From an uncultured Poribacteria bacterium (GTDB lineage Bacteria; Poribacteria; WGA-4E; WGA-3G): a stretch of 64,000 nt of DNA. Both the position numbers and the translations under genes were made by a program. Below the pieces are notes generated by a model that saw nothing but the letters and a program-made list of their open reading frames with translations, searched no databases and was not told where the DNA came from. The stretch lies in assembly GCA_951828385.1 (NCBI GenBank), contig OX639973.1, positions 1,728,470 through 1,792,469 on the forward strand. The letters are read 5' to 3'. Positions 8,327 through 49,322 of this stretch are shown here, piece after piece (within the stretch, counting starts at the first letter, position 1; every line of letters starts with the position of its first letter).

Positions 8327-8331
8327 CAATT

Positions 8332-8571
8332 ATAGTGAATCCTAAAAATAAATAGACACATTCGTAGCACAAACTTCCAGTTTGTGCCAGTCTGAATGCC
8401 TGTTATAGGTATTCAGACTGTTTGAGAATGCCCAATTAATTCTAAACTTTACTATAAAATAAATAGACACATTCGTAGCACAAACTTCCAGTTTGTGTTT
8501 CCAGTCTGAATGCCTGTTATAGGTATTCAGACTGTTTGAGAATGCCCAATTAATTCTAAACTTTACTATAG
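8332..8571 (+). repeat. Two tandem copies of the ~120-bp REP-like palindromic intergenic element
   Basis: Each unit reads tatagtgaatcctaaaaataaatagaca...cgtagcacaaacttccagtttgtgc (perfect palindrome), then cagtctgaatgcctgttataggtattcagactg (second hairpin), and ends ...actttactata. The same element recurs at 10320, 12877, 19311-19880, 27165, 32438, 34085 and 45133. Confidence 0.85.
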
Positions 8572-10319: not shown

Positions 10320-10442
10320 TATAGTGAATCCTAAAAATAAATAGACATCGTAGCACAAACTTCCAGTTTGTGCCAGTCTGAATGCCTATTATAGGTATTC
10401 AGACTGTTTGAGAGTGCCCAATTAATTCTAAACTTTACTATA
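10320..10442 (+). repeat. REP-like palindromic element (single full copy)
   Basis: Near-identical to the 8332..8456 unit, including both hairpins and the tatagtg/actata termini. Confidence 0.8.
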
Positions 10443-12876: not shown

Positions 12877-13017
12877 TATAGTGAATCATTCGTAGCGCAA
12901 ACTTCCAGTTTGTGCACATTCGTAGCACAAACTTTTAGTTTGGGTTTCCAGTCTGAATGCCTGTTATAGGTATTCAGACTGTTTGAGAGTGCCCAATTAA
13001 TTCTAAACTTTACTATA
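12877..13017 (+). repeat. REP-like element with duplicated first hairpin (gtagcgcaaacttccagtttgtgc + gtagcacaaacttttagtttggg) and standard second hairpin
   Basis: Read directly from sequence. Same termini as the other copies. Confidence 0.8.
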
Positions 13018-13022
13018 CCACC

Positions 13023-13086
13023 TTGTAGCATAGACTGTTAGTCTGTGCATCAGGGCGCGCAACCTAACAGGATACGCTACAAAACC
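13023..13086. repeat. Diverged REP pair in inverted orientation (REPIN-like doublet)
   Basis: ttgtagcatagactgttagtctgtgc is followed by ...gcgcaacctaacaggatacgctacaa, and the latter is the reverse complement of a related ttgtagcgtatcctgttaggttgcgc unit. Confidence 0.5.
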
Positions 13087-19310: not shown

Positions 19311-19880
19311 AACATTCGTAGCATTTCGCTACAAAGACGTCCAGCTTTGTAGCATAAACTTTTAGTTTGTGCTTTGTAGTATAAACTTCCAGTTTGTGCA
19401 TCTTTGTAGCATAAACTTTTAGTTTGTGCATCTTTGTAGCATAAACTTTTAGTTTGTGCATCTTTGTAGCATAAACTTTTAGTTTGTGCATCTTTGTAGC
19501 ATAAACTTTTAGTTTGTGCATCTTTGTAGCATAAACTTTTAGTTTGTGCATCTTTGTAGCATAAACTTCCAGTTTGTGCATCTTTGTAGCATAAACTTTT
19601 AGTTTGTGCATCTTTGTAGCATAAACTTTTAGTTTGTGCATCTTTGTAGCATAAACTTTTAGTTTGTGCATCTTTGTAGCATAAACTTCCAGTTTGTGCA
19701 TCTTTGTAGCATAAACTTTTAGTTTGTGCATCTTTGTAGCATAAACTTCCAGTTTGTGCATCTTTGTAGCATAAACTTCCAGTTTGTGCTTTGTAGCATA
19801 AACTTTTAGTTTCGGTTTCCAGTCTGAATGCCTGTTATAGGTATTCAGACTGTTTGAGAGTGCCCAATTAACTATAGGTT
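19311..19880 (+). repeat. Tandem array of ~16 copies of a 30-bp REP head unit (tctttgtagcataaactt[tt/cc]agtttgtgca), terminated by the standard second-hairpin REP tail
   Basis: Seen directly. Units alternate cc/tt at two positions. No unique spacers are present. Confidence 0.85.
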
Positions 19881-19923
19881 TTCCTATAAAATTGAATGGC
19901 TCTGAACTATTCCTCGATTTTCC

Positions 19924-27164: not shown

Positions 27165-27290
27165 TATAGTGAATCCTAAAAATAAATAGACATATTCGTA
27201 GCACAAACTTCCAGTTTGTGCCAGTCTGAATGCCTGTTATAGGTATTCAGACTGTTTCGGAGTGCCCAATTAATTCTAAACTTTACTATA
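27165..27290 (+). repeat. REP-like palindromic element (full copy)
   Basis: tatagtgaatcctaaaaataaatagacatattcgtagcacaaacttccagtttgtgccagtctgaatgcc...ctttactata. Confidence 0.8.
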
Positions 27291-32203: not shown

Positions 32204-32437
32204 GTCTTTTCTCCTTTTTGAAATCTATAATTGCCAAAAACATTGGGTAAAGTGTCACATGATTCTATCACATAATCCGCATTGTCTGATAGAAAAAATG
32301 AATGCAATTACCACACCGATCAAAGCAGCGGAATTGGAACACGCCGATTTTTCTTGATTTAAGGGTGGCACGGCTATTAAAATAGAGACACCTATTACGA
32401 CACTTTTGCTAATTTTATAGCCCATAAATAAGTGGGC

Positions 32438-32539
32438 ATCTTTGTAGCATAGGAGACCGTTAGCCTGTGCCAGTCTGAATGCCTGTTATAGGTATTCAAA
32501 CTGTTTGAGAGTTCCCAATTAACTATAGGTTTTACTATA
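32438..32539 (+). repeat. REP-like element, variant head (tctttgtagcataggagaccgttagcctgtgc) plus standard second hairpin
   Basis: Seen directly. Ends ...aactataggttttactata. Confidence 0.7.
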
Positions 32540-34084: not shown

Positions 34085-34120
34085 GGTCTTTTGTAGCATA
34101 GGCTGTTAGCCTGTGCCAAG
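34085..34120 (+). repeat. REP head fragment (tcttttgtagcataggctgttagcctgtgc) without second hairpin
   Basis: Seen directly. It is followed by a 16-bp string catctgcgttttttcc that also occurs at 33831-33846. Confidence 0.5.
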
Positions 34121-34295
34121 AGAACATCTGCGTTTTTTCCAAGCACCTCATTTACCAGTGTGTGCTTAAAATCAAAATTGCGTAAGTCCTAAAATAGTTG
34201 AAAAAAATATATCACAACTCGCGTCGGTTATCAACGGTTTTAGTAGGAAATTTCAGGGCTATTTAGTTCTCGGTTTTTCGTTACCCTATTATGTG

Positions 34296-34735: not shown

Positions 34736-35305
34736 TTAGAACGGAATATGATCAGATTCATCGGTTGTTATCCGCTTTAGAAAGGAGAGGACGCTTTTGA
34801 TATCCTTTGTACTCACGTCCCAGCCGTACTCTTTAGCAATCTGCTGAACCTGTGTGAGTGTGAGCGTTCCGTTCCGTTCCCAGCTGACAATGTAATAGAC
34901 CTTTGCCGCAATAGAGAGTATGTTAAAGTGTTTAGAGATAGGCTGTTCGTTTATCCGATTTATAGCATTTTGCCATTCCAAAAACTGAGGTTTCTGCTGA
35001 ATGTCCTCCCAGACTGGCTCAACATTATCGGGAACAGAATAAGTATGCCGGCGGATTTCACCAAAAACATTCTGATCATTTGAAAAGGACTCTGTCACTT
35101 CTTTAAGTAACCCACAGTTTACCAAACTATCTAAGTGGCTTGCAACGTAACTACTGTAGGGCCCATAATAATGTGGCGAGAACCCTAAATCAAACTTCAT
35201 CAGGACTGATAAAAAATAAACCTTCTTCTGCAGAAGCGTTCTGCCGCGCAGTCCATTTTCGCCTTCACTCTTCACAACGAGGAGAAGGATGTCAATAATG
35301 TGCAT
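34736..35305 (-). CDS. Panacea-domain (DUF4065, SocA/PanA-like) protein
   Basis: LQKKVYFLSVLMKFDLGFSPHYYGPYSSYVASHLDSL fits the DUF4065 core (LQKLLYF....F.A...GP). The ATG at 35305 (MHIIDI) has an AAGGAGG SD 4-5 nt upstream and lies 11 nt after the HD-gene stop. The ORF-track start at 35329 lacks an SD. Confidence 0.6.
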   Translation of the reverse strand: MHIIDILLLVVKSEGENGLRGRTLLQKKVYFLSVLMKFDLGFSPHYYGPYSSYVASHLDSLVNCGLLKEVTESFSNDQNVFGEIRRHTYSVPDNVEPVWEDIQQKPQFLEWQNAINRINEQPISKHFNILSIAAKVYYIVSWERNGTLTLTQVQQIAKEYGWDVSTKDIKSVLSFLKRITTDESDHIPF

Positions 35306-35316
35306 GTTGCCTCCTT

Positions 35317-36690
35317 TTAGACAGAACACAAAATGTTTTGAATGTCAGCCTCAAGTTCGGAAGGAGCTTTCTGTTTTTTGGACAGATTCCAATCATCGGG
35401 CGAGGCATAAACTTGTACCGTTTCTAAAGAAGCATCGTCGCCAGGGGGACGTACGAAAGATAGTTCACTTGCATAATACCCAATACGCCTTAGTACATCA
35501 TACTTCTCGTCAAGAATTTCGATCGATTCTGGATTTAGAATTTTGCTCCGCCTTCCATAGTCAGGGTTCCGAATCTGACGCTTATGGACAATCACATCGG
35601 TAGCGTCAATTTCGAGATAATGTGCGATCTTTTGCTCCCATTGCTGCTTTTGGGCATCCGCCATTTCAAGTAGTCTTGGTAGACTCCTTGCATCTTCAAC
35701 TTCTTTAAGTGGCAATTCGGCGATCTTTTTGAAAAGTTTTCTGTGGTAAAGTCGATTGAAAATTTCACATGCTTTCTCTTGTTTGCAGTGCCTCAAAATG
35801 TCAATCACCTTTTCGTCGTGATAATTTAGATACCTCTGAATGAAGTTTTCTTTATCATTTTCATCGTATTGATAGAGTTCTTTCATGTCAGAATTGCCGC
35901 TTTCAATTGCAAGCGTAATCCCACGGATAATCATCTGGTTGGAAATCAAACTGACTTTGTGCCAATAGACCTGCTGTGTCATGTGATAGCGCGCAAGCAG
36001 GAGTTGTTCAAGAGCATAAATTCCTGCACTACTCATAACAAGGGAGGTTGTGTTTCTATCCTTATCAATACGGCAGGATTCAATTATTTGTTCCAAATCG
36101 TACTGTCCATACTTGACACCGGCGAAATAGGAATCTCGCAGGAGATAATCCATTTTATCGGCATCAAGTTCACTGGAGATAACGTTACGCCGCCAATCCC
36201 GCATATCCTTCTCTTTAATCAGCCTAACCACAAATTCCCGTTCATCATCGTCCAGAATAGATCTAATCTTCGGGTCTGTTTCGATTATATCAACCGTGAT
36301 CTGTTCGTGTATTTTTTCCCGTGTTTCACCGATACCAGTCTGATCGCGAGCGTACTTTTCTAAGAGATCTTCAGAAACATGACTGAACGGCCCATGCCCA
36401 ATATCATGGATCAACGCAGCCAAGCGCATTAAGTCAACATCTCGATCATTTACGTCATTAGATCCCAACTCTTTGAGCCTGGAACAAATTCTCCCGACAA
36501 TGTGCATCACCCCAATTGAATGATCAAAGCGAGTATGCAAGGCCCCTGGATACACCAAAAACGTCATCGCCAACTGTCGGATCCGACGAAGCCGTTGAAA
36601 AGCCTTTGTGTTAATCAGTTTGACCTCTTTTTCTGAAAGTTCAATGAGCCCGTGAATCGGATCCCGGACTCGATATCTTCGTTCTGTCAT
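35317..36690 (-). CDS. HD-domain phosphohydrolase of the SAMHD1/dGTPase-like dNTP triphosphohydrolase family (COG1078)
   Basis: VRDPIHGLIELSEKEVKLINTKAFQRLRRIRQL...PGALHTRFDHSIGVMHI...LIHDIGHGPFSH and DADKMDYLLRDSYFAGVKYGQYD are the signature segments of this family. Confidence 0.8.
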   Translation of the reverse strand: MTERRYRVRDPIHGLIELSEKEVKLINTKAFQRLRRIRQLAMTFLVYPGALHTRFDHSIGVMHIVGRICSRLKELGSNDVNDRDVDLMRLAALIHDIGHGPFSHVSEDLLEKYARDQTGIGETREKIHEQITVDIIETDPKIRSILDDDEREFVVRLIKEKDMRDWRRNVISSELDADKMDYLLRDSYFAGVKYGQYDLEQIIESCRIDKDRNTTSLVMSSAGIYALEQLLLARYHMTQQVYWHKVSLISNQMIIRGITLAIESGNSDMKELYQYDENDKENFIQRYLNYHDEKVIDILRHCKQEKACEIFNRLYHRKLFKKIAELPLKEVEDARSLPRLLEMADAQKQQWEQKIAHYLEIDATDVIVHKRQIRNPDYGRRSKILNPESIEILDEKYDVLRRIGYYASELSFVRPPGDDASLETVQVYASPDDWNLSKKQKAPSELEADIQNILCSV

Positions 36691-37100
36691 ATTAAAATTA
36701 TACCATTTTTTGATAAGTAATTCAAATTATTTTCACTAAAATCTGCACAAAGCGTAGATTTATCAAGTTTATATTTGCTGCATCTGGAAACCGGAGAAGG
36801 TATTAACGTTTGCTCCAGCGGAGCAATATGTCTATAGCAGCCAGGAGAACCGGTCCTGCACTCCAGCGGAGTGCTATGTGTCTTGAAAGCATACCCGGAA
36901 ACCTCTGTGGAAACAATGCAGCGTTTCTATGGAATACATTGGGTTTTACTCGCTTTCAAGCAACAGATTGAAAATTGTCCAAAGTTTGGCATGAGTATAT
37001 CAGAGGCGTATTTCATTTTCAAGGGAAAAGCTTGGTGTGGATTGCGCAGAAATGGGTTTGTGTGTTCAGGGTTTGTTTTCTAAATGGCAGTTTCTTGACT

Positions 37101-37150
37101 ATCTGAATCGCGGATTATCACGGATGACACAGATTTCGCGGATTGATACT
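37101..37150 (+). repeat. Copy A of a 45-bp direct-repeat-containing motif tgaatcgcggatt.tcacggatgacacagatttcgcggattg
   Basis: Two further copies at 37791-37835 and 37868-37912. Confidence 0.6.
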
Positions 37151-37245
37151 CTATAACATCATGTAATCCGATAAAAGGATAGTTTTTACTTTACTGCTGT
37201 GTCTACAAGGGAATTAGCATTGCGGCAATGTCTTCCGGGAGTTTA
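37150..37245 (-). pseudogene. Orphan duplicate of the 3' end of a TIR-TPR-like gene (encodes ...LPEDIAAMLIPL*)
   Basis: About 85 bp closely similar to 37935-38020, the last codons of 37973..39694 (...LPADIAALLTPSQT*) plus downstream sequence. No upstream gene body. Confidence 0.45.
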
Positions 37246-37442
37246 AATTATGTTTCTGTTCAACGACCGCAATGCTTGAATATGCCCGGCTGAACGGATT
37301 CTGTTAAGGTAAATGACTTCCTCTGCCCGTTTGCGACCAGAAATCTTCGGCAGCCTGTTGATGGTTTTGATGCAGCCAAAGATGAATTCGCCTAAGGATG
37401 CGCGGCAACCCTATCGCGTCCAGCCCACGCGGCGCGGGTTGA

Positions 37443-37679
37443 TCAAAAGATAAGGTCATCACCACTCACCTCGGACAAGTCAAGTGCCGAGGTATTCCCT
37501 ATTTTGAGTTTCTCGGCATAAATCTCGTCCCATGTCTGTGCAAGGGATGGACGGATTAGGATGCCATCATCTGTTCTTTCAAGCACAACACCCGATTCCA
37601 ACCCCAATTCTTTCACCCAGTCAAGAGGCAATTTGATTTTATAATCAGTTTCCAACGCAAGCGTTTTCATGGTATCCAC
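37443..37679 (-). CDS. AbrB/MazE/SpoVT-like swapped-hairpin DNA-binding protein (antitoxin-like)
   Basis: KIKLPLDWVKELGLESGVVLERTDDGILIRP resembles the AbrB/MazE-type beta-barrel. No adjacent toxin gene. Confidence 0.5.
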   Translation of the reverse strand: MDTMKTLALETDYKIKLPLDWVKELGLESGVVLERTDDGILIRPSLAQTWDEIYAEKLKIGNTSALDLSEVSGDDLIF

Positions 37680-37790
37680 CTTTTCCTACAAATAGTTAAG
37701 AAAGTATACCACAACTCGCGTCGGTTATCAACGGTTTTAGTGGCAAATTTCTAATTGGCGGGGTGAGGAGTTGGCGTTTTCTTGTTATCT

Positions 37791-37912
37791 GAATCGCGGA
37801 TTAGCACGGATGACACAGATTTCGCGGATTTTAAGAGTAACTCTGTTCGTAGTTGCGCAATTCATTGCGTCTCTTGTCAGAATCGCGGATTTTCGCGGAT
37901 GACACAGATTTC
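37791..37912 (+). repeat. Copies B and C of the cgcggatt...cacagatttcgcggatt motif, in tandem 33 bp apart
   Basis: Seen directly. They lie between the AbrB-like gene and the 3' end of the TIR-TPR gene. Confidence 0.6.
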
Positions 37913-37972
37913 GCGGATTGGCACTCTGTAACATCAAGTAATCTACTAAAAGCACAGTTTTTTGTTTTGCTG

Positions 37973-39694
37973 CTATGTCTGTGAGGGAGTTAGCAGTGCG
38001 GCGATGTCTGCTGGCAACTGGATACCCGTTTTCTGCTCAAAATCTTCGACGTTTGCGTAATCATTATGGAGTTCAGCAATGAGGTCCATACCAAGGTCTT
38101 GGGCTGTGATAAAGTCGGATTTGGCTTTTTCCCATTTTTTCATGTATAACCACAGTTGCGCGCGGATGACATAAGCTTGGGCAGAATCCGGACTGAGTTG
38201 TATCACTTTGGTACAGTCTTCAATAGCACTGTCAAAATCACCTTTAGTATAGTAAGTAGCACTTCGATTGTAATAAGTTATGGCATCATTCGGATTGAGT
38301 AGTATCACTTTGGTATAGTCTTCAATAGCACTGTCAAAATTGCCTTTTTCCCTATAAACATTGCCTCGATCGCGATATGCCTTGACATAATCAGGTTTTA
38401 GTTCTATTGCTTTTGTATAGTCTTCAATAGCAAGATCAATCTTATCTATTTCCTCGTAAACAGCACCTCGGTTGTAATAAGCGTTGGCATAATCAGGTTT
38501 GAGTTTTATTGCGGTGTTATAGTCTTTTATGGCATTATCAAGATCGTCTTTGTCAGCGTAAGCATTACCCCGATTGTTATATGCCGTGCTATAATTAGGG
38601 TCTATTTTTATCGCTGTGTTATAGTCTCTGATAGCATTGTCAATGTCGCCTTTATCTCTATAAGCATTGCCTCGATTGCTATATGCCTCGGTATAATCTG
38701 GGTTGAGTTTTATCGCTGTGTTATAGTCATTGATAGCATTGTCAAAATCGTCTATGTTAACGTAAACATTGCCCCGATTGTTGAAGGCACTGGCATTACA
38801 AGGGTCCATCTCCATAGATTTGTTCAAGTCTCGAAGAGCACTGTCAAAATCGTCTTTTATATTGTAAGCCGCTCCCCGGTTACTGTAGGCCGTGGCATAA
38901 TTGGGATTGAGTTGTATCGCTTTACTATAGTCTTTAATAGCTTTGTTAACCTCACCTTTGCGGATGTAAGCTGTTCCTCGATTGTTGTAGGCTGTGGCAT
39001 AATCGGGATTGAGTTGTATCGCTTTGCTCAAATCCACAATAGCTTTGTCAAACTTGTCAAGATTAATATAAGCAGCCCCCCGGTTGTTATAGGCTGCAAC
39101 ATCTTTCGGACTGAGTTCAACTGTTCGTGAGTATGCCTTTAACGCCTCGTCTATTTGCCCCAAAATCATCATGAAGTTACCCCGATGGAATGCTAAAGAA
39201 GCGAGTGTTTCTATTTCCTCGGGTGTTACACTGGGTGAAGGCTTTGCTTGAGATTGCATTTCGTTTATAACCTTTCGGATGCCCTCTACTACACTCATCC
39301 ACCCTTTGCTCTCAGGGTTCCATTCGTTAATATCGTAAATTGGTTTGCCTTTTTCGGGAAGAGCTTGGAAATCACTAAGTTGATGATTTTGCCAATCGCA
39401 GTGTTCAAGGATAATCGGAATCACTCTTATGTTTGGATTTAACGCAGCAGTTAATTCTTTATTGCAGTTTTCAGAAGCGAGACTATACCGACAAGTAAGG
39501 TAGAGTAGAATGTCCGAATCGGCAAGATTGTTGAAAATTGCATCCCGCCATCTATCACCGGGTAGGATTTCGTTGTCGTGCCAGACATCAATTAACCCGT
39601 TTTGCCTCAGAACATCAAGGCTGGTTATCAATTCGTCCTTTGCTTCTGAATTTTTATGTGCATAGGTAATGAAAATCTTCAGCCCTTTATTCAT
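37973..39694 (-). CDS. TIR-domain protein with about 10 C-terminal TPR repeats
   Basis: The N-terminus KIFITYAHKNSEAKDEL...DVWHDNEILPGDRWRDAIFNNLADSDILLYLTCRYSLASENCNKEL matches bacterial TIR_2 domains (FISYxxxD ... YxxSxWCxxEL). This is followed by repeated AxYNNRGxAYxxxxxFDxAIxDYxxAIxLxP TPR units. The ATG at 39694 overlaps the MTase stop (ATGAATAA) and sits 5 nt after a GGAGGG in the MTase 3' end. Confidence 0.75.
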   Translation of the reverse strand: MNKGLKIFITYAHKNSEAKDELITSLDVLRQNGLIDVWHDNEILPGDRWRDAIFNNLADSDILLYLTCRYSLASENCNKELTAALNPNIRVIPIILEHCDWQNHQLSDFQALPEKGKPIYDINEWNPESKGWMSVVEGIRKVINEMQSQAKPSPSVTPEEIETLASLAFHRGNFMMILGQIDEALKAYSRTVELSPKDVAAYNNRGAAYINLDKFDKAIVDLSKAIQLNPDYATAYNNRGTAYIRKGEVNKAIKDYSKAIQLNPNYATAYSNRGAAYNIKDDFDSALRDLNKSMEMDPCNASAFNNRGNVYVNIDDFDNAINDYNTAIKLNPDYTEAYSNRGNAYRDKGDIDNAIRDYNTAIKIDPNYSTAYNNRGNAYADKDDLDNAIKDYNTAIKLKPDYANAYYNRGAVYEEIDKIDLAIEDYTKAIELKPDYVKAYRDRGNVYREKGNFDSAIEDYTKVILLNPNDAITYYNRSATYYTKGDFDSAIEDCTKVIQLSPDSAQAYVIRAQLWLYMKKWEKAKSDFITAQDLGMDLIAELHNDYANVEDFEQKTGIQLPADIAALLTPSQT

Positions 39695-42600
39695 CCTTTC
39701 CCTCCACAATCGCAATCTCATCTTCCGTTAAATTATACAATTCATACACCAATTTATCAATCTCATCTTCAAGGGAGGAAGTGTCTGCTTCGGAGTCAGT
39801 GTGTTTAGCGTCAAGGATTTCGTCAACTTGCATTTCAATCTGTTTGACAATGGATTGGTTTGCATCGGTGATAGGTGGAATAGGAAAGTTTTTCATAAAC
39901 TCACTTTTAAACCTGACTCCTTTTGAACCTAAATGACCACCAGCATAGTAACTTTTGAATGCGAAAAGGAAAAACCCTGAATTTAAGAGACCAAGCAAGT
40001 AAGTGAGATTTTTGCCCGTTAAAAACCTTGTCGTATCAAGCGAATAGAATTTGTTTTTATCAATAAGAAATTTCCCTTCTTTTGCCATCTCTTGCCAAAC
40101 AATCTTTTCCTTATCAAATTCTGAGTAGTAGGCACAAGCCCTGAGATTCCACCAATTTTCGCCTTGATCGTCTCTATTCAAGAGTCCTTTACCTTTCATT
40201 TTTATGATTCCCGAGTCCATCCGTTTTGCTAAGGTCTCAAGGTGATTATAGATAGCGGGATATTTATTGGGAATATCCAGATCGGAACCTGTTGCGAGTA
40301 TGTAAAATTTCCCTTGTTGAGCATGGTAACGTTTAATGTCTTTTCCGCGTAGGAGTGGTTTTATGATTTCTGCTGACTTTGGGTCTTGCTTTATGAGTTG
40401 CTCACGTTTTGCTTCGTCTATGATGAATGCTTCATTACAACCTGTTATGATTCCACGATAGATGTTTATATCCCAATCTTTAAGCGGTTTGCCGATACCC
40501 TCTATTTTGCGTTTCAGGTTGAGTTCGGCAGGTGAGAGTATCGCCCACGGTTCACCTTTAGCAGGCATCTCCATAGTCGCGCCATTGGTACTCAAATACC
40601 GGACTATGCTGCCGGTCTGTCTGTCAAAGTCTGCTCCCAGAGATACACCTCTAAAGGCAGCGGGTACATCGGATACACTCTTTTGAAAAAGCAAGATGTT
40701 TGTGTCAACGGTGGCATCAAACACGTCTGGTCCCATATCCAGCAGTTGAATCGGTTGGGTAAGTGTTACAAAGTAATCCCTCAATTTTTTACCGTAACCA
40801 GCGCGCATCCATTTATTAGAAGTAATCAAACAGGCATGTCCATTGGTTTTCAAAAGTTGATTCGCTTTTTCATAGAACAAACAGTAAATATCGCCTGTAC
40901 GGGCGAAGGTTTCAAAACCTGCGCCTTGATAAAGTTTCCCAAGTCTCCCATTTTCCTTTTGCAATTGGACATAAGGCGGATTTCCAAGTACCACATCAAC
41001 TCCGTCTCTGATGCCAAACATCCGTTCCGGTTCAAACCAATCTGTCTTTGCGTTCTGGTCGTAGGGTTTCCAGCGAACGATTTTGCGAGCGTTTTCAAAT
41101 TCGGCATCAAATTCTTTCTTACGCGTTTCAAACGTTTTCTGTTCCTTCTCTCGCAACTGTTCACGCAGTTCAGCGGTGGGAAGTTGGTTCACTTTTTGAT
41201 CTATTTCTCGTTGTCGGCTCTCTATCCATTCTGTTCGCTGCCGCTCCAATTCTTCCTCCAATTGTTGGCGGCAATCTTCTTCTTGCTCTTCAAGTTTACG
41301 TTTTTGTGTTCGGTTGTTTGCGAGAAAAAACTTTTCACGAATCCCGTCAATTTCTTTTAGCAATTGCTGTACGGTATCATCTTGAAACAATCCCCTTGTT
41401 TCGGATAAATCTATGCCTATCAGTGTATCCGCAGCAACAAAACGTGTCTCCAAATTCGGCAGCGGTTTGATACCGAAGTTCTCCGCGTCTCTGTCCGGTT
41501 CCTGCTCAATAGCAAGCGATATGAAAAAGCGGAGTTTAGCGATTTGACACGCAATCGGTTGGATATCCACACCGAAGATGCTATTTTGGATTAGGTATAA
41601 TTTCCGTCCAAAATCCGAATCACGGTAACGCTCAAAAGTATCACTGATTTCGGAGAGCTCATCCTTCCGTTCCTGTGGATTTTGGGTGTTGAAGGCATTT
41701 GCAGCGCGTTCTTTTGCAAGTTGCATCTGTAATGCTTCCCATCGGTTGTTATCAGGGTCAAGTCGCCGGAGTGCCAGCGTCAACTTGTGGAGTATACCCA
41801 TTGGAAATGCCCCGGAACCGACGGCTGGATCCAATATCTTGAGTTCAGAAATTGTTTTCACAATCGCGTCCGTTTCGCGGTTGTCAAACCATTCGTGAGC
41901 ATCGTCAAACATTTTGGCATAGTCAAACAGGTATCGCAATCGTTCGTCCCAAAGTTCTGAATTACCATCACTCGGTTGACACTTTTGGGATAACGCAGCA
42001 ACTAACGCCTCCTCCACCATATAGTCTACGATAGCGCGTGGGGTGTAATAGGAGCCTGTCATCTTGCGCGCCGTTTCTCCCGTTTCCGGGTTGATAGCGG
42101 CGAGTAGGTTTTCAAACACCCTGCCGAGCAGTTCGGGGTCCAGTGCAACCTCCTGATCTACCGGCGTGTTCTCTTCAACGGTGAATTTGTAGTGTTCAAG
42201 TAAAGGGATCAATCCGTGCTGTGCGTCAAAAAAGAGGTGGTTCGGGATGGATAGCTTATGGTACTGATTATCAGAAAAGCAGTCTATTCGGTAACCGCCT
42301 TCACCTGTTGCCTTGAAACTATCCAGACAGTCAAACAAGCCACCGTTGATGAACGGCGTTTTGTCAAAAAATTCTAATAGCTTATCAGGCGCGCGCATCT
42401 GCTTCTTGTAGCGATACCGTGAGAAATTGCGGTGATTAGAATTGCCGCCCTTGCTAAACGTCCGTTTGTCTATCTCTGTGTTCAACGTTGCGAAAAAGAG
42501 GTTTTGTAGCACAGCACGGTAGTAAGAATCGCCGTTGTCAAAACCATTCTCTGTCAAAAGGTTTTGAACTTGTGCTTTGTTAAAGAGTTCATCTGCCACC

Positions 42601-43442
42601 AATCCTTTTTCCTTGATAAACCAGATAAAGAGCAGACGCGTGATGAGTCGGATAACATGCTCTTCCGGTTTTATCATACGATTCTCATCTGTCGGGAAGG
42701 TTGCCTCTTTAACTGCCCATTCATACCACGCGAACAGTTTCCGATAGAATTGCTTGTTGAGTGCTTCTGTATTGAGAATACCTTCCCACGCTTTATGGAG
42801 TGTGTCAAAGTTGGTAACGTCTTCAATTTCAATAAGGCTACGGAGGTGGAGTTCCGAGAGGATGTCAATATGGGCGCGCTTGGGGGAATCAAGGTTAATG
42901 TCCTTGATGAGCGTCACTTTTTCCAATACCTGCTTATTAGAGGTACGTTTGTGGTGCCTGCGGTTGATTATGGCGAGCGAGAGCACAGCACCGTATCGGA
43001 ACATCACCATGATAGATTTTTCAAATGCTTTGTTAATAAAACGGGTGATGTCAGCAAGTTGTGTGCGCGTGTAGGTATTTTTAGTCAGTTGAACGGTGAC
43101 GAACATATAAGAGGTTCTGAGTGCATCGTCTATGTGGGTACTCTCAAATAACGAACCCTGCTCTGGGTCTACCTGTTGGTTAATCTCATCGTCCGCTACT
43201 TGCATGATTTGGAAAAAGGATTGCCACTCTTCAATGCGGAGTTTATCAGATGGCTTGGCGGTGTCAAGGGCGGATTCGACGAGACGGTCAAACCTATTGC
43301 TGTCGATTGCATCATTTCCGACTCGCTTGCTGTAGTAGCCGAGGGTGTTCAGGAGAGTTGTGGCGGCTTCCCTTAGCGGTTGGTTATCGAAATTCTTTAG
43401 GGCGTTCTCAATGTTCTGTTTAATTGTTATGTCTGAATTCAT
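39687..43442 (-). CDS. Large (1251 aa) gamma-class N6-adenine DNA methyltransferase of the Eco57I / Type IIG / BREX-PglX-like kind
   Basis: TGSYYTPRAIVDYMVEEAL (motif X, the FxTP-type segment), DPAVGSGAFPMGILHKL (motif I), VVLGNPPYVQLQ (motif IV NPPY). An HsdM-like helical segment RLITRLLFIWFIKEKGL precedes the catalytic core, and a long C-terminal region is consistent with a target-recognition domain. Confidence 0.8.
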   Translation of the reverse strand: MNSDITIKQNIENALKNFDNQPLREAATTLLNTLGYYSKRVGNDAIDSNRFDRLVESALDTAKPSDKLRIEEWQSFFQIMQVADDEINQQVDPEQGSLFESTHIDDALRTSYMFVTVQLTKNTYTRTQLADITRFINKAFEKSIMVMFRYGAVLSLAIINRRHHKRTSNKQVLEKVTLIKDINLDSPKRAHIDILSELHLRSLIEIEDVTNFDTLHKAWEGILNTEALNKQFYRKLFAWYEWAVKEATFPTDENRMIKPEEHVIRLITRLLFIWFIKEKGLVADELFNKAQVQNLLTENGFDNGDSYYRAVLQNLFFATLNTEIDKRTFSKGGNSNHRNFSRYRYKKQMRAPDKLLEFFDKTPFINGGLFDCLDSFKATGEGGYRIDCFSDNQYHKLSIPNHLFFDAQHGLIPLLEHYKFTVEENTPVDQEVALDPELLGRVFENLLAAINPETGETARKMTGSYYTPRAIVDYMVEEALVAALSQKCQPSDGNSELWDERLRYLFDYAKMFDDAHEWFDNRETDAIVKTISELKILDPAVGSGAFPMGILHKLTLALRRLDPDNNRWEALQMQLAKERAANAFNTQNPQERKDELSEISDTFERYRDSDFGRKLYLIQNSIFGVDIQPIACQIAKLRFFISLAIEQEPDRDAENFGIKPLPNLETRFVAADTLIGIDLSETRGLFQDDTVQQLLKEIDGIREKFFLANNRTQKRKLEEQEEDCRQQLEEELERQRTEWIESRQREIDQKVNQLPTAELREQLREKEQKTFETRKKEFDAEFENARKIVRWKPYDQNAKTDWFEPERMFGIRDGVDVVLGNPPYVQLQKENGRLGKLYQGAGFETFARTGDIYCLFYEKANQLLKTNGHACLITSNKWMRAGYGKKLRDYFVTLTQPIQLLDMGPDVFDATVDTNILLFQKSVSDVPAAFRGVSLGADFDRQTGSIVRYLSTNGATMEMPAKGEPWAILSPAELNLKRKIEGIGKPLKDWDINIYRGIITGCNEAFIIDEAKREQLIKQDPKSAEIIKPLLRGKDIKRYHAQQGKFYILATGSDLDIPNKYPAIYNHLETLAKRMDSGIIKMKGKGLLNRDDQGENWWNLRACAYYSEFDKEKIVWQEMAKEGKFLIDKNKFYSLDTTRFLTGKNLTYLLGLLNSGFFLFAFKSYYAGGHLGSKGVRFKSEFMKNFPIPPITDANQSIVKQIEMQVDEILDAKHTDSEADTSSLEDEIDKLVYELYNLTEDEIAIVEGKDE

Positions 43443-43461
43443 AGGCTACCTTTCTCAGTTA

Positions 43462-43701
43462 TCAATCCATAATGACACCTATCGGGTATTGTCCGGTCGG
43501 CGCAGTCGGTTCGATAGAGAATCCGAAGTTCGGATGCGACGGGTCCGGGTCCGTGCCGATCGAGTACGTGAACGGCACCGTGATGATATGCGTACCATAT
43601 CCCGTAATGGTTTTCTTTCGATGGGCTTCCGGTATTTGAAGCGTACAATTGATGTTAACCGTCACACAAACCGTAAATACATCCGTACAAATCGAAGACA
43701 T
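43462..43701 (-). CDS. Small hypothetical ORF (79 aa) between the lipoprotein gene and the MTase
   Basis: ORF track only. A competing 69-aa frame exists. GAAAGG lies 7 nt upstream of the MTase ATG that follows. No homology recognised. Confidence 0.25.
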   Translation of the reverse strand: MSSICTDVFTVCVTVNINCTLQIPEAHRKKTITGYGTHIITVPFTYSIGTDPDPSHPNFGFSIEPTAPTGQYPIGVIMD

Positions 43702-43724
43702 TTGCTATTCCTCTAACATTACCC

Positions 43725-43946
43725 CTAATTGCATGTGTTGTGAGATGACGCGACCGGGGCCCGGATCGTAATCTGGGTCCATATAGACGCACGCAATCCC
43801 TTCCCGTTTTTTATTGCCGTGTTGCACTTCAACGATTTCCCAAAAGTTACGGGTCTGCCTACTAATGCTTCTTGCATTGGGGTCTCCTTTAGTTCATCCA
43901 CCACAATTAGCGGATATTGGTTTTCGATACACTTATTTGTCGCCAT
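43725..43946 (-). CDS. Small hypothetical ORF (73 aa) abutting the stop of 43947..44927
   Basis: ORF track only. The start is immediately adjacent to the upstream stop, suggesting co-transcription. Confidence 0.3.
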   Translation of the reverse strand: MATNKCIENQYPLIVVDELKETPMQEALVGRPVTFGKSLKCNTAIKNGKGLRASIWTQITIRAPVASSHNTCN

Positions 43947-44927
43947 TTATTCATACTTCCTCGATTCAACTGCACGTAGATTTATCGGATCAAACCACTC
44001 CGCGAGCAACGTATACATCAACGGCTCTCTCTCACGAAATAGGTCGAGGGCATGTGCTTTCTCTTCTAACGAAAACCAGAGAAACCAGTGTTTTACGCCC
44101 TCTGCCCAGTATTCCCCCTTCGTTGTCAGTGCGTAACTTCCGAGAGAACTGCCAGTTTCTCTTGCAGACTGGAAAGCGGCTTTGAGACGGGCATCAAAAG
44201 TCGTATCTAAGAGCTCAATTGCTATATGGATGGCATGCGCAAACTCATGGATGAATATCTCAAAACCCGAGTTAAAACCCGGTACAACATATACATTCGC
44301 CCAACCATAAGAAGAACCAAGTCCCCCTATCGTTACGATAGGATAGTCAATCGCACCATTCCCTAAGTGTATCTCAGGTATCACTGTGCGACCCTGATGT
44401 GCATTTACAAGAATCATACGGAATTTAGGGCTCGGTGTCGTGCGTCCGGTAACATCGTGTCTACAGCAGTGCTGCGTTGCGCCGGGTCGGTTTTCACGCG
44501 TAGGTGTGAGTAGTTCCCGGAGTTCAGGTCTCTTAAATGTCATGCCCAAAACGATGTCCCGTGCTACATAAAATAAACGGTCATCGATAAGCCCGTTCCC
44601 CATGATCGCAACACCGCCAGCGCTCACATATTTCGTGTAGTACGCTTCCTGCTCACGTCTGAGACATATCTGGTGGATCAGGGCCTTTGCCCGAATATCG
44701 TCGGGGTCATTATCACCCTCTATAGTATCCTCAAGTTCTGCCATGAGCGTGTCCACATCCTTGCCCCAGATGATGTCTTGGATGTTTATTGGCACGGGTC
44801 CGACATCCGGCAACGCTGCAGGTGCGGTCGGCGCAAGCCCGTCGAGCAGCACGCCTTCATCGCCACAGCCCCACGTCAAACAGAGAAAAAGTATCAGAAT
44901 TAGAAACGCTTTTATTTTTATGTGCAT
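43947..44927 (-). CDS. Putative secreted zinc metallopeptidase-like lipoprotein (HExxH)
   Basis: Signal peptide ending LTWGC (possible lipobox Cys). FIHEFAHAIHIAIE contains an HExxH motif. Family not recognised. Confidence 0.5.
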   Translation of the reverse strand: MHIKIKAFLILILFLCLTWGCGDEGVLLDGLAPTAPAALPDVGPVPINIQDIIWGKDVDTLMAELEDTIEGDNDPDDIRAKALIHQICLRREQEAYYTKYVSAGGVAIMGNGLIDDRLFYVARDIVLGMTFKRPELRELLTPTRENRPGATQHCCRHDVTGRTTPSPKFRMILVNAHQGRTVIPEIHLGNGAIDYPIVTIGGLGSSYGWANVYVVPGFNSGFEIFIHEFAHAIHIAIELLDTTFDARLKAAFQSARETGSSLGSYALTTKGEYWAEGVKHWFLWFSLEEKAHALDLFREREPLMYTLLAEWFDPINLRAVESRKYE

Positions 44928-45132
44928 TGGATGTCCTCCTAACTGCCGCTACCACTGCCACTGTCATAGATCGTGAACGAAAAATCAAATGAATCGTCTG
45001 GCATACTCAACATCGCTGGCATCACCTGCTTCTGTTTTCTCTTGTTCCGCCGCAATGGGTTCTCCTGTAGCGGTCTGTGAACCCGAAGTCGCGACCGCAA
45101 GCCGTTGTTCGTCTTGATAGTCGACAAGGAAT

Positions 45133-45240
45133 ACGTAGCATTTACATCTATATCGTAGCACATACTTCCAGTTTGTGCTCTATATCTATATCGTAGCACA
45201 TACTTCCAGTTTGTGCTACGAAGATTTCAGATATTGCTAC
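45133..45240 (+). repeat. Pair of REP heads (cgtagcacatacttccagtttgtgc x2, plus a partial third) immediately 3' of the RAYT gene
   Basis: Seen directly. Same palindrome core as the dispersed REP elements. Confidence 0.7.
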
Positions 45241-45908
45241 AAGTCGCATGTTTTGGATAGGTAATTCCACTTCCATTCTTTCCATTCTTTGACTAAACCT
45301 ATTTTTACCGGATTATTGAGGACATATCTAATAATCCGATGCAGTTCATCTGGATTACGGATACAATGGTCGTAACTTTCGTGTTGCCAGAATGCACCAC
45401 TACGTCCCAATATTTGATTTGCTTTTTGTGCTGTATAACTTTTGAGTGAATGCATGATGGAAGCTAACGAATGGTAACGCATATTGTGAGTCTGTTTATC
45501 GTCTGTTACAGAAGGTTGGATTTCCAGTGGTGTAAATACGACATGGACATGGTTTGCCATGATGCAGTATGAAATTAAAGAATATACTTTCCCATTTAGG
45601 TGGTGAAGACTCTCGGCTACCAATTTAGCTATCTGTTCGTTTTTGAGCCACACGGGTCCGTTATTTGCTTGGTCTAATGTTTCTTCAAATTTTCGGAACC
45701 ACTCACGTTTCTTGTCTGGGATATCTTGCTTCTGTTTGAAGGTTATCTGTTCTGCTGCTTCAAGTTTTCTCTTTTCTGTGATGTACTGTTGTAAGATATG
45801 TTTCGGTATTGATCCTGTCAGGTTAAATGTTATGAAGAAGGTTGCCCCTGGGGGTTGTATATGTGGTAAGTTACGACGATAGTATGATTTGTAGTTATAT
45901 TGATTCAT
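45237..45908 (-). CDS. REP-associated tyrosine transposase (RAYT, IS200/IS605 TnpA-like HUH Y1 transposase)
   Basis: N-terminal YYRRNLPHIQPPGATFFITFNL matches the RAYT R-R-x-L-P-H...F-x-T-F signature. HUH motif in ANHVHVVF. The catalytic Tyr region ESYDHCIRNPDELHRIIRYVLNNP. It is flanked by REP copies. The ATG at 45908 was chosen over the ORF-track start because RAYTs begin near the RR.LPH motif. Confidence 0.75.
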   Translation of the reverse strand: MNQYNYKSYYRRNLPHIQPPGATFFITFNLTGSIPKHILQQYITEKRKLEAAEQITFKQKQDIPDKKREWFRKFEETLDQANNGPVWLKNEQIAKLVAESLHHLNGKVYSLISYCIMANHVHVVFTPLEIQPSVTDDKQTHNMRYHSLASIMHSLKSYTAQKANQILGRSGAFWQHESYDHCIRNPDELHRIIRYVLNNPVKIGLVKEWKEWKWNYLSKTCDL

Positions 45909-46055
45909 TTTTAGCTTTTCCGTTTTACATCTATATTTTTTGTAGTGTCCACTTCCGAAGTGGCGCATCCATTATCTGTGTAGCGTCCATTTCTATTTGG
46001 CGAAAAACAGAATTCTACAGAAGACACAATCTGGAAGATTGTGGTACAACATGGG

Positions 46056-49000
46056 CTAATGTCTAATGACTAACCACGTAACGAGTTCAAATTCAGTTTT
46101 TTCTGTAATCTGACTATCGGCGGTTGGGAGCAGTGCATCAGGGCTTGCATCGAGTTGGTCGTTGACTTTTTGGTTGTATTCCTTGCGAATTGAATTGAGG
46201 GCTACATCGAGTAGCATCTCATAGATCGTCATATCGTTGCCGTTGTCGGTTTCTTCGTTGAAATAGTTGCAGAGCTCTTGATCGTGATTTGTCTTTCCGA
46301 CACAGAGAATGCTGAAGCGTTCTAAAATCCGTTTAGGATTTGTGAATCCGATAGAGATTTCGCCATCATCGCTGATATGGACGAGGTAGTACGGGTGAAT
46401 GGGGTTAAGTTTTTTCCCTTCTTCACTGTCTTCTGCCTCATCGGTCTGCTTTAGACAGAAGATAACCCCCGGTTTAATATTTACAGGAGTGCCATCGTGT
46501 GTGAGCGGTGCGGTAACGGCATATAAGCCAAGCGGGGCATCCCGAAGTTTCGCTTCGTTTTCACGCAGATAGTTGAGTAGCTGCGCACGGAAATCGTCAA
46601 GCGTGAATTGGTTGAGATTCAATTGCTCTTCGATATCCTCAAAGTCAAGGATATCGGTTTGCATGCGGCGGAGTTGCTCGTCGCGGTGCGACCAGACCTG
46701 TTCCATACTCTCTTTTTCCGTCAATGAGAGCAGGTCATCATCACCCGTAGCAGTAAGATTGACGAGTGCCATGCGTGCCTCAACGCGAGGTTTTAAGTTA
46801 ATATATGCGTCGAGTTCAGGGGTAGGCCAGAAGTTGATAAGATGAATTTTCTTGTTCTTGCTGCCGATACGGTCAATTCGTCCGAAACGTTGGATAATCC
46901 GGACGGGGTTCCAGTGGATGTCGTAATTGATGAGATAATCGCAATCTTGTAAGTTTTGTCCTTCGGAGATACAATCGGTAGCGATGAGCAGATCAATTTC
47001 TGGGAGTTCATCTTCGCCTTCTGTTTCACCTTCGTCCCTCTCTTTGGAAATCGGTGAGAAATTGGTAAGAATCTCGTCAAAATCGTTTCGGACGAGTTCG
47101 CTTCTGCTTGCACCACCGGTAACGACAGCGGATTCAATATTAAGCGTCTCCTTTGCCCATTCGTATAGATTATCGTAGAGATAGTTGGCGGTATCGGCAA
47201 AGGCGGTAAAGACGAGAACCTTGCGATTCTCTTTTCCACATCGGTTTTTTGCGGGGTTCTGCACCTTAGCGGCGATCAGCTGCTTGAGTTGCTCCAATTT
47301 GGCATCCCGATCGGACGTAATATTTTGTGCGATTTTGTAAATTTTATCCAATTGCGTTCTATCGTCGTGAAGGTCAGCAAGCCAAGCGTCAAGATCAAGA
47401 TGTTCATAGCGGTAGGTCTGATTTTTTCCCGCCTGCACGCCGGTTTGTAGTTCGTCATCCTCTCCATATTCTTCCGTTGTTTCGGCAAAGGGATCGAACC
47501 CGTTTTCGCTTACAACACTTGCGGTCGCATTCAGAAAGTCCTGAATTTCAGACGCACGCGCTTTGATATTTTCAATGGTGCGTTCAAGGGTTGATGCGAA
47601 GGAGTGGACGCTGCTCTCAAGCCGTTTGAGAAAGTTCACCTTCATCATACCGATGAGGTTAAACTCGCGCTGCTGAAGAAGTCTCTCTCCGTAATGGTGA
47701 CGGCATTCCTGACGAATGTATCTTGACGGATTGAAGATTGCAAGTCGATACCCATCAATCTGGTGGCTGATGGTTTGGTAAGTGGGAAATTTCCCTTGCA
47801 GGTCAATTTCAGGAAAGATGGACTGCGGTGGTTCACGATCCGGGAATTGACCGACCTCTTCAATCGCATTCTCATAGAAGTTTATGACATGGGTCCGAGA
47901 ACGAGCGATAGTGAGTCTATCGAGCAGGGGAAAAAAGTCAGCATTCAGACTTTCCGCAAGACTTTCGTGTTGTTGAGAATTTTTAGGTATCTGCTCTGTT
48001 TCTGTTGTCCACGTATCAAAACGACTTTGTGCAGCGTTGAGCGTTCCTTTAATGCTTGGAATACCAGTCTGTCTAAAAGCGTCGTCCCTATCCTCAGTGA
48101 TTAAACATATTTGATTATCAAGGTCGGTAAGCCGATTGTTGACTGGGGTCGCAGAGAGCATTAAGACTTGGGTTTTGCCGCCACTCTGGATGACATCTTC
48201 CATCAATTTCTCGTAACGGGCACCGCGATTTCGGAAGTTGTGGGATTCGTCGATGACAATAAGATCATATCCATCCCATTCGTGTTGTGCAAGGTCAATA
48301 CCGTTGGATTCTCCACTGTCTCGGCTTAGATCCGTGTGTGCAAGCACGTTGTAACGAAACCGATCGGCTTTCAGGGGATTACGTTTCCTGCGAAAGTGTA
48401 TTGGATAAAGCGTCCAGTTCTTTTCTAATTTTTTAGGGCATAGGACTAAAACATTAGCGTTTCGCAATTCAAAGTACTTGATAATCGCGAGTGCCTCGTA
48501 GGTTTTACCCAATCCGACGCTATCAGCGATAATACAACCGTTGTGTGCCTTGAGTTTCTGGAGGCATGCCTGAACACCGTGTTTTTGAAAAGCGTAGAGT
48601 TTCTGCCAGATTTCTGTCTCCAGGAATGAAGGATTCGCTTCAGCGAACTGCATATCGCTTGCATCTGCCAATATGTTTTCAAAGAGGTGGTAAAGCGTTT
48701 TGTAGTAGATGAATTCGGGGGCTTTGTCCTGATAAGCATTTTTGAGGGTTTGCAACACCTGTGCTTTTACATCCGCCACCTGATCCGATTCCCAAAGGTT
48801 ATCAAACCATGTCTTAAGGTCAGCACAGTCACTTTTACTGTCAACTTCGAGGTTGAGTTCAATGTTGCTTGCTTTTTCGCTTAACCCCAAGCCACGCACG
48901 GTAAAGTTTGAGCTCCCGATAATCGCATCTTCAGTCCTATCGTTCTCTATATAATACATTTTGCCGTGCAGGAAATTTGATTTACGGACTGAACGGATCT

Positions 49001-49322
49001 CGACCTTTTTTTCAATCCACTCGGCGCAAGCTCTGGCGACCTCTTTTTGGGGAAGATAGTTTTGGAGTTTTAACCCAGTTTCGGTAAGTTGGAACGCCTT
49101 GCTTTCGGTTTTGTCGGGATCAATGTGAATAAAACTGGGTTCACCGAACAAGAAACGGAGTCCTTTGATACTTGTTAATTCGTCTCTGAGTTTGTCGAAG
49201 GCGTAAATCGTGAAATAGGCGGAGACAATGGAGAGATCAGAACCGTCTTGGATTTTATCTCGCAGAAAATCGGCGACGGTGCCGTACATGCTGTTGTCTC
49301 GGATACGGGAGGTTTTTGACAT
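46056..49322 (-). CDS. PLD-family nuclease fused to an SNF2-family helicase
   Basis: N-terminal HKD motif context HGKMYYIEN...AIIGSSNFT (PLD nuclease). Helicase motifs GLGKT (Walker A), DESHNF (DExH), and a helicase C-terminal domain (QRFGRIDRIG). Confidence 0.8.
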   Translation of the reverse strand: MSKTSRIRDNSMYGTVADFLRDKIQDGSDLSIVSAYFTIYAFDKLRDELTSIKGLRFLFGEPSFIHIDPDKTESKAFQLTETGLKLQNYLPQKEVARACAEWIEKKVEIRSVRKSNFLHGKMYYIENDRTEDAIIGSSNFTVRGLGLSEKASNIELNLEVDSKSDCADLKTWFDNLWESDQVADVKAQVLQTLKNAYQDKAPEFIYYKTLYHLFENILADASDMQFAEANPSFLETEIWQKLYAFQKHGVQACLQKLKAHNGCIIADSVGLGKTYEALAIIKYFELRNANVLVLCPKKLEKNWTLYPIHFRRKRNPLKADRFRYNVLAHTDLSRDSGESNGIDLAQHEWDGYDLIVIDESHNFRNRGARYEKLMEDVIQSGGKTQVLMLSATPVNNRLTDLDNQICLITEDRDDAFRQTGIPSIKGTLNAAQSRFDTWTTETEQIPKNSQQHESLAESLNADFFPLLDRLTIARSRTHVINFYENAIEEVGQFPDREPPQSIFPEIDLQGKFPTYQTISHQIDGYRLAIFNPSRYIRQECRHHYGERLLQQREFNLIGMMKVNFLKRLESSVHSFASTLERTIENIKARASEIQDFLNATASVVSENGFDPFAETTEEYGEDDELQTGVQAGKNQTYRYEHLDLDAWLADLHDDRTQLDKIYKIAQNITSDRDAKLEQLKQLIAAKVQNPAKNRCGKENRKVLVFTAFADTANYLYDNLYEWAKETLNIESAVVTGGASRSELVRNDFDEILTNFSPISKERDEGETEGEDELPEIDLLIATDCISEGQNLQDCDYLINYDIHWNPVRIIQRFGRIDRIGSKNKKIHLINFWPTPELDAYINLKPRVEARMALVNLTATGDDDLLSLTEKESMEQVWSHRDEQLRRMQTDILDFEDIEEQLNLNQFTLDDFRAQLLNYLRENEAKLRDAPLGLYAVTAPLTHDGTPVNIKPGVIFCLKQTDEAEDSEEGKKLNPIHPYYLVHISDDGEISIGFTNPKRILERFSILCVGKTNHDQELCNYFNEETDNGNDMTIYEMLLDVALNSIRKEYNQKVNDQLDASPDALLPTADSQITEKTEFELVTWLVIRH

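Follow-up and report, generated by a model that had tools for sequence, protein, structure and literature searches.

A REP-associated tyrosine transposase gene bracketed by hairpins, and a dispersed REP family, in an uncultured Poribacteria bacterium

The stretch of DNA analyzed here, referred to as the window, comprises 64,000 nucleotides of contig OX639973.1 (GenBank assembly GCA_951828385.1, positions 1,728,470 to 1,792,469 of the forward strand) from an uncultured Poribacteria bacterium. It contains a single gene for a REP-associated tyrosine transposase (RAYT), bracketed by hairpins of the repetitive extragenic palindrome (REP) type, and hairpins of the same kind are dispersed between other genes. 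The gene and its flanks are arranged as follows.

45237..45908, minus strand: RAYT (TnpA-REP, Y1 HUH) gene of 223 amino acids, recognized by its intact open reading frame (ORF), motifs, profile matches and orthologues.
45193..45219, plus strand: proximal 3'-flank REP with a 'double foot', GTAGCACATACTTCCAGTTTGTGCTAC, inverted with respect to the gene; one end of the REP-to-REP block.
45155..45178, plus strand: distal 3'-flank REP, GTAGCACATACTTCCAGTTTGTGC, a direct repeat of the proximal REP with a period of 38 nt.
45942..46004, plus strand: two degenerate GTAG-footed hairpins, GTAGTGTCCACTTCCGAAGTGGCGC and GTAGCGTCCATTTCTATTTGGCGA, between the 5' REP and the start codon, conserved in the orthologous locus L001.
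46024..46047, minus strand (the gene's sense strand): 5'-flank REP variant GTACCACAATCTTCCAGATTGTG, GTAC-CACAATC-TTCCA-GATTGTG; the other end of the REP-to-REP block.

The protein (MNQYNYKSYYRRNLPHIQPPGATFFITFNL...ANHVHVVF...FWQHESYDH...RYVLNNPVK) also includes the stretch RRNLPH...ATFFITFNL. Its HUH motif is N119-H120-V121-H122, W174-Q175 forms a second motif, and the catalytic tyrosine is Y195 in YVLNNP. An alternative upstream ATG at 45968 would lengthen the protein to 243 amino acids, which is unlikely because all orthologues begin at the same methionine (MNQ/MSH). H120, H122, W174, Y195, N198, N199 and P200 do not vary among 25 homologues. The gene is under purifying selection, with a ratio of nonsynonymous to synonymous substitution (dN/dS) of 0.17-0.36 in orthologue pairs. 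The NCBIfam model NF047646 (REP_Tyr_transpos) matches the window protein with E=7e-19 and 68.2 bits. This model is matched by 25/25 tested family members and the IS200 model NF033573 by one of the 25, at 9e-4. A PDB sequence search returned E. coli TnpAREP (4ER8) as sole match (phmmer E=0.009, C-terminal part only). In an hhalign comparison with this enzyme, two segments of whose sequence were confirmed by the PDB match, the probability was 90%, with HUH on HUH and Y195 on the catalytic tyrosine. NHVH and YVLNNP thereby align with HMH and Y-I-Y-I-N-P. The motifs, the NF047646 match and the alignment bear out the RAYT signature (RRNLPH, HUH and tyrosine regions) reported in a first-pass annotation of this DNA. 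As far as sequence comparison goes, the protein is confirmed as a RAYT-type Y1 HUH enzyme, closer to RAYT than to IS200 models. The family is large, with 9,347 clusters (50% identity, E<=1e-3), and relatives were found in Balneola and KSB1, one of them named 'REP element-mobilizing transposase RayT' in IMG. The named close homologues all belong to Candidatus Poribacteria, and no database record contains the exact window protein.

The core of the proximal 3' REP, GTAGCACATACTTCCAGTTTGTGC, occupies 45193-45216 and runs on to a CTAC 'second foot' ending at 45219. A T.T stem mismatch in this copy is kept in orthologues, and a truncated GTAGCAT remnant lies by the distal copy at 45135. The first-pass annotation had placed a REP doublet directly 3' of the gene, which is correct for the plus-strand copies at 45155 and 45193. 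Both are one base off the core it gave, and the 5'-flank REP at 46024-46047 was absent from its list. The 5' GTAC-hairpin and the inverted 3' GTAG-hairpin recur in the orthologues L001-L005 and L135 (81-96% identity), and the arrangement is common to every orthologue and paralogue examined (L001-L005, L124, L125, L133-L136). The locus therefore has the arrangement of a REPtron, that is, a RAYT bracketed by the same hairpins as are dispersed between genes.

The REP-to-REP block of 861 bp (46049-45189) shares 94% identity with positions 9877-10720 of L001, whose context is unrelated, and the REP-RAYT-REP unit has therefore been relocated at least once. Relocation with hairpin-defined ends would also be expected if gene and hairpins formed an autonomous insertion sequence (IS) of the IS200/IS605 type instead of a domesticated RAYT, and a 47-bp direct duplication bracketing the whole cluster in L005 (9734-9780/10972-11018) and L135 (5458-5504/6894-6940) could be read in the same way. 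Duplications of such length are unexpected from Y1 transposition; these span the ribosome-binding site and first codons of the Type IIG gene. An autonomous IS is, however, extremely unlikely. The tyrosine motif is Y-x-x-x-N-P and not the Y-x-x-x-Q of IS200 (PMC6006769), the IS200 model matches only one of the 25 members tested, and no tnpB lies beside the gene, the neighbours being defence genes. The gene is syntenic in four genomes, where it sits between HKD-Snf2 and Type IIG genes at 81-94% identity. A search with the REP 23-mer in the genome contigs of 185,579 species genomes gave at least 116 dispersed stretches, and the RAYT gene was in none of the 116 listed REP loci. The flanking hairpins are thus massively dispersed without the gene, which is present once in the window and whose clusters are found on 1-3 contigs. 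The Y1 HUH fold family, the hairpin-defined ends and the moving block are shared with IS200/IS605, whereas the class 2 tyrosine motif, the lack of tnpB, the single copy and the gene-free dispersal of hairpins set the domesticated RAYT apart. The protein does not group with ordinary IS200 TnpA, the outcome that the first-pass annotation had named as fatal to its proposal.

Within the window, the core was found 22 times with up to three mismatches, always on the plus strand, and never in 100 shuffles. The dense family announced by the first-pass annotation is therefore real, with its count of at least 12 loci revised to 11 loci and about 27 units, since 16 units form one tandem array. The loci are at 8364, 8475, 10350, 12892/12922, 13025, 19345-19812, 27198, 32444, 34093, 45155/45193 and 46024. 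Ten of the 11 lie on the plus strand, 46024 being the sole exception, and nine are strictly intergenic in a window whose non-coding share is about 16%, in agreement with the predominantly intergenic, one-strand distribution first described. The two others touch no coding sequence beyond a doubtful ORF start and an ORF built of the repeat itself. The idea of one family with the same core throughout did not hold, as the exact 24-mer occurs only three times in the window and three loop variants exist. The typical form is a short, mostly perfect hairpin of 9 bp with a 3-nt loop. TTCCA loops are present at 8364, 8475, 10350, 12892, 27198 and in the gene flanks, TTTTA loops at 12922 and in most array units, and TGTTA loops at 13025, 32444 and 34093. 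Folding of the main hairpins as single-stranded DNA (ssDNA), a check proposed with the first-pass annotation, gave z values of -4.6 to -10.5 against shuffles. No inverted doublet of REPs (REPIN) is present among the dispersed copies in the window. Two copies are solo variants.

13025..13048, plus strand: solo REP variant GTAGCATAGACTGTTAGTCTGTGC, TGTTA loop, compensated stem.
34093..34116, plus strand: solo REP variant GTAGCATAGGCTGTTAGCCTGTGC, TGTTA loop, compensated stem.

The loops acquire meaning when the paralogues are considered. Paralogous RAYT clades at 55-69% identity (L124, L125, L133, L134, L136) have the same architecture with other loops, and paralogues on the same contig are about 57-60% identical to the window RAYT. 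Flanking loops are TTCCA in the window clade, TGCCA in a sister clade at 81-85% identity, TTTTA in a clade at 55-60% and TGTTA in the basal L133/L136, a pattern that follows the RAYT protein tree. For short perfect REPs, the loop bases have been shown experimentally to be recognition determinants (PMC8266576), so that this distribution is what cognate pairs should show. It follows that the window RAYT is cognate to the TTCCA copies alone. The TTTTA and TGTTA copies match other clades and would imply paralogous RAYTs elsewhere in the genome, outside the window. The earlier proposal that this gene explains the REP family of the window thus stands only for the TTCCA copies. The paralogues L124, L125, L133, L134 and L136 also carry an inverted REP in frame within the RAYT coding sequence, with a loop that matches their flanking REPs. 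One such segment, GCA CAA ACT AAA AGT TTG TGC TAC, encodes AQTKSLCY (family form AQT[KN]SL[CR]Y); in the TGTTA clade the loop codon is AAC (N). Some paralogues have an added forward in-frame REP encoding VPQTFSL. In the window RAYT, the in-frame REP has decayed to the remnant KQTHNMRY.

Six dispersed copies of the window are not bare REPs; they lie inside mosaic elements of about 125 nt. In these, a left (L) arm, TATAGTGAATCC...ATAGACA, is followed by the REP, an unrelated 14-bp second hairpin, CAGTCTGAATGCCTGTTATAGGTATTCAGACTG, and a right (R) arm ending in TTACTATA. Together the two arms form terminal inverted repeats (TIRs), perfect over 14 nt (TATAGTAAAACCTA) in L037/L068. The mosaics and the array are listed below.

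8331..8570, plus strand: two overlapping mosaics, each with L arm TATAGTGAA.., REP GTAGCACAAACTTCCAGTTTGTGC, hairpin CAGTCTGAATGCCTGTTATAGGTATTCAGACTG and R arm ..TTACTATA.
10320..10442, plus strand: mosaic with TTCCA-loop REP.
12877..13017, plus strand: mosaic with two head-to-tail REPs, one with a TTCCA and one with a TTTTA loop.
27165..27290, plus strand: mosaic with TTCCA-loop REP; it shares 96% identity with the 8331 copy.
32416..32539, plus strand: mosaic of a variant frame, whose TGTTA-type REP has an indel.
19345..19888, plus strand: head-to-tail REP array of 15.8 units with period 30, then the second hairpin and R arm of a mosaic.

In the array at 19345-19812, each unit joins a 24-nt hairpin to the same 6-nt linker, and TTTTA and TTCCA loops are mixed among the units. 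A CRISPR array was rejected as their identity, given the identical linkers of 6 nt and the period of 30. Other genomes also have such arrays, with periods of 30-34 nt. A 222-amino-acid minus-strand ORF (19294-19962) consists almost entirely of the REP array and is almost certainly spurious, a trap for gene callers. No known structured RNA could be recognized in the repeats, as Rfam gave no match at gathering thresholds and only chance miRNA-like matches on the mosaics, and this candidate was dropped. A terminator scan flagged neither the REP nor the second hairpin.

The defined ends of the mosaics suggest another explanation, namely that they are miniature inverted-repeat transposable elements (MITEs) moved by a DDE transposase, for example of the IS630/Tc1-like type, with the REP as mere cargo and the RAYT not the cause of the density. 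The perfect TIRs would fit such elements, the overlapping pair at 8331-8570 has a 5-bp GCAAT on both sides, the same REP is housed in three or more other TIR frames (ATACCATTTCT..., TAGGACTTACGC...), mostly with TA-like flanks, and IS630-like transposases are present in these genomes. The MITE explanation is possible but considerably less probable than not. Four or more unrelated frames contain the same REP, which is also seen in free inverted doublets and in arrays, and this indicates that the hairpin and not the frame is the common mobile or selected module; a single frame can also carry REPs of three loop classes. Moreover, about 1 Mb of sampled loci yielded no autonomous IS bearing these TIRs, and no consistent target duplication was seen at the mosaics. 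In a comparison meant to find empty sites of the mosaics, the orthologous intergenic regions in L126-L130 proved to contain other GTAG hairpins and could not be aligned.

Other elements are associated with these repeats. A second kind of mosaic (TIR ATACCATTTCT...AGAAATGGTAT) at 27291-27435 abuts the first kind and holds other GTAG/GTAC hairpins; the ATACCATTTCT frame is the commonest host of REPs and REP arrays in other Poribacteria genomes. An IS630-like (DDE_3) IS and short derivatives with ends TGAAGATTGAAA...ATTCGGTAAT sit inside REP loops, which recalls the REP-targeting IS of enterobacteria and pseudomonads. Their positions are given in one line.

IS630-like insertions in REP loops: L002 ~8500-9740; L001 19870-19990; L012, L038, L106, L114.

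Beyond the window, the named REP 23-mer matches among those listed are all from Poribacteria, with a few labelled 'uncultured bacterium' metagenome-assembled genomes. They are spread over megabase-scale contigs (in OZ244889.1 at 0.90, 2.66, 2.78, 4.55, 5.07 and 5.15 Mb), so the REPs are not confined to one contig region, a restriction that the first-pass annotation had considered damaging to its case. In other Poribacteria genomes, inverted, REPIN-like doublets occur at 23/125 sites. When a pattern fixing only the foot and the outer stem was run over all sampled sequence, 336 sites were obtained, of which 313 keep all four inner pairs, with five Watson-Crick stem types. The REP hairpin is under stem constraint, with covariation.

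At 64 non-doublet sites versus 29, the window's four included (binomial p ~3e-4), the GTAG strand has the sense of the upstream gene; outside the window the numbers are 60 versus 29. The near-uniform plus orientation in the window largely follows from this, because the REP strand tracks the direction of the upstream gene. REP orientation was not associated with GC skew at the local level (52:44 for sites outside the window, 56:44 with the window's added), and a replication-strand cause of the one-strand bias was rejected on this ground. The sense-strand bias could also be expected if the RAYT were a retained, non-mobilizing relic and the repeats persisted and varied by slippage, recombination and selection as elements of 3' untranslated regions or of DNA structure. 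Replication slippage could expand array units, and the RAYT-proximal REP has a fixed mismatch in all orthologues. A relic of this kind nevertheless seems improbable given the purifying selection with invariant catalytic residues, the co-diversification of loops and RAYTs and the near-identical mosaic copies in the window. In addition, orthologous intergenic sites hold different elements in related genomes.

Several REP/RAYT systems have been described with which the Poribacteria family can be compared. TnpA-Y1 class 2 is defined by the signature Y-x-x-x-N-P, and IS200 class 1 by Y-x-x-x-Q (PMC6006769). The NHVH, WQ and YVLNNP motifs, an aspartate where TnpAREP of E. coli has E100, REPs with a double foot and a low copy number place the RAYT in class 2. 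Judged from motifs and from double-foot and in-frame REPs, the family would be nearest to TnpA-Y1 subclass 2.4 (PMC6006769), which is group 4 of Bertels (PMC5581495) and occurs mainly in Cyanobacteria, Bacteroidetes, Chlorobia and Caldilineae; in this feature-based placement, the motifs also fit the small subclass 2.7. Shared with subclass 2.4 are the NH[IFV]H, WQ and Y-I/V-x-N-N-P motifs, a variable segment from HUH to helix C, double-foot REPs (GTAG...CTAC), low copy number and, most diagnostic, the in-frame REP between HUH and tyrosine, which is found in the Poribacteria paralogues. The differences are the Poribacteria host, valine for isoleucine in the tyrosine motif, a longer N-terminal half with an insertion of about 50 amino acids between strand 1 and helix A, and the loss of the internal hairpin from the window gene.

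The E. coli REPtron (TnpAREP/YafM, 4ER8) has the same HUH/Y1 core, GTAG-contact residues (W94, Q95, H101, R104) and REP-flanked gene, together with REPs joined to other conserved motifs in bacterial interspersed mosaic elements (BIMEs) and tandem amplification with variable copy number. However, E100 is replaced by aspartate in the Poribacteria RAYT, sequence similarity is weak, and the E. coli REPs are long, bulged and alternating, whereas those of Poribacteria are short, mostly perfect and often in single orientation or head-to-tail. The group 3 REPtrons of Stenotrophomonas and Marinomonas likewise have short perfect palindromes with loop bases essential for the cognate enzyme, but belong to protein subclass 2.5 and to Gammaproteobacteria, and their activity was shown experimentally (PMC8266576). 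With the REPIN-RAYT system of Pseudomonas (PMC3116915), the Poribacteria system shares a single-copy RAYT with dispersed non-autonomous hairpins, largely vertical inheritance, several RAYT paralogues each with its own REP family and, in other Poribacteria genomes, inverted doublets; the window units differ in being solo hairpins in TIR mosaics or head-to-tail arrays.

Taken together, the locus very probably represents a domesticated, single-copy class 2 Y1 HUH RAYT (nearest to 2.4 / group 4) bracketed by inverted cognate REPs in Candidatus Poribacteria. The integrity and family of the gene, the conserved flank architecture, the dispersal, the loop/RAYT co-diversification and the hairpin covariation were directly observed. 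By analogy with TnpAREP of E. coli, Stenotrophomonas and Marinomonas, the RAYT would bind the folded ssDNA REP through the GTAG/GTAC foot and, for short perfect hairpins, also through the loop. Y195 would then cleave nearby ssDNA, with H120/H122 holding the metal, and the strands would be rejoined. Such cleavage and rejoining might disseminate REPs, diversify linkers and build tandem copies; tandem BIMEs have been proposed to arise through strand transfer by TnpAREP (PMC3333891). The catalysis, the choice of ssDNA as substrate and a role for the RAYT, and not another enzyme, in spreading mosaics and arrays are drawn from this analogy, and current activity of the system may likewise be supposed.

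Several observations weigh against this interpretation. The score of 68.2 bits is below the curated equivalog cut-off of NF047646 (80 bits), so that the RAYT is filed in the wider class 2 and not as an equivalog of the seed proteins of the model. Pfam Y1_Tnp gave 20.8 bits with a cut-off of 23, and an AlphaFold2 model from the 25-sequence alignment was unusable, with a pLDDT confidence value of 40. In the window, the dispersed copies are set in mosaics with TIRs and were possibly moved by a different (DDE) enzyme. The two loop types in one array mean that loop specificity is not absolute or that loops mutate in place, and the lack of a GC-skew association leaves the lagging-strand model unsupported for these REPs. 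A more far-reaching proposal, a still dynamic, multi-paralogue and 'loop-coded' REP/RAYT network in Poribacteria with loops proper to each clade, modules swapped between frames, RAYT-made arrays and a relocating REPtron, can be put forward only tentatively.

The RAYT lies within a defence island (34736-49322), whose other members are as follows.

46056-49322: HKD(PLD)+Snf2 helicase.
39687-43442: Type IIG restriction-methylase.
37973-39721: ThsB-like TIR+TPR protein.
35317-36690: dGTPase-like HD protein.

Two RAYT paralogues are located inside operons resembling Type III restriction-modification systems, and the other paralogues are not. A 1.67-kb segment (43467-45150) that adjoins the distal REP is an insertion relative to L004 and contains an ORF for a lipoprotein-like protein of 326 amino acids (43947-44927) with no family match. 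Hairpins of another GTAG-footed family, GTAGTAGGCACGCTCCGCGTGCC, occupy 25706-25728 and 33406-33428 and are also found in L126-L128 upstream of the matched gene. A compensated variant, GGCATAC...GTATGCC, fills the orthologous site of the 8331-8570 mosaics in related genomes. These hairpins and a further GTAG hairpin at 23245 are presumably REPs of further RAYTs. Three other small families of intergenic repeats are unrelated to the REP: a 91-nt repeat rich in TCGCGGATT (37102-37192, 37788-37878, 37877-37967), a 68-nt pair of 84% identity (34187-34254 / 37684-37751) and a promoter-like 44-nt pair (TTG...TATATTATAA) of 95% identity (14669-14712 / 19914-19957). Two large proteins (10459-12267 and 15306-19148) have common internal repeats and a conserved C-terminal segment of about 120 nt that includes NYPNPFNPETWIPYQL.

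From the PVC superphylum, GTAG REPs and RAYTs have already been reported in Planctomycetes and Verrucomicrobia (PMC3733652), and Planctomycetes also have class 3 relatives (PMC6006769). The statement of the first-pass annotation that such systems are poorly documented in PVC-like and candidate phyla is thus too broad for the former. It is apt for Poribacteria, as no paper linking REP/RAYT to this group was found in the literature and the system appears to be undescribed there. The Poribacteria REP/RAYT is genuine, but as a bacterial repeat system it is of an ordinary kind, and its interest lies mainly in the mosaics, the arrays and the set of loop-coded paralogues. For annotation, repeat arrays give rise to spurious ORFs, such as that at 19294-19962, and can fragment assemblies. 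REP/RAYT biology is extended here to an uncultured, sponge-associated candidate phylum in which these genes are annotated merely as 'hypothetical protein'. The four closely related RAYT clades, with cognate hairpins that differ mainly in the loop, provide a comparative set for the recognition of short perfect hairpins, and a loop-coded network, if true, would be a natural system for studying RAYT specificity and the co-evolution of REP populations.

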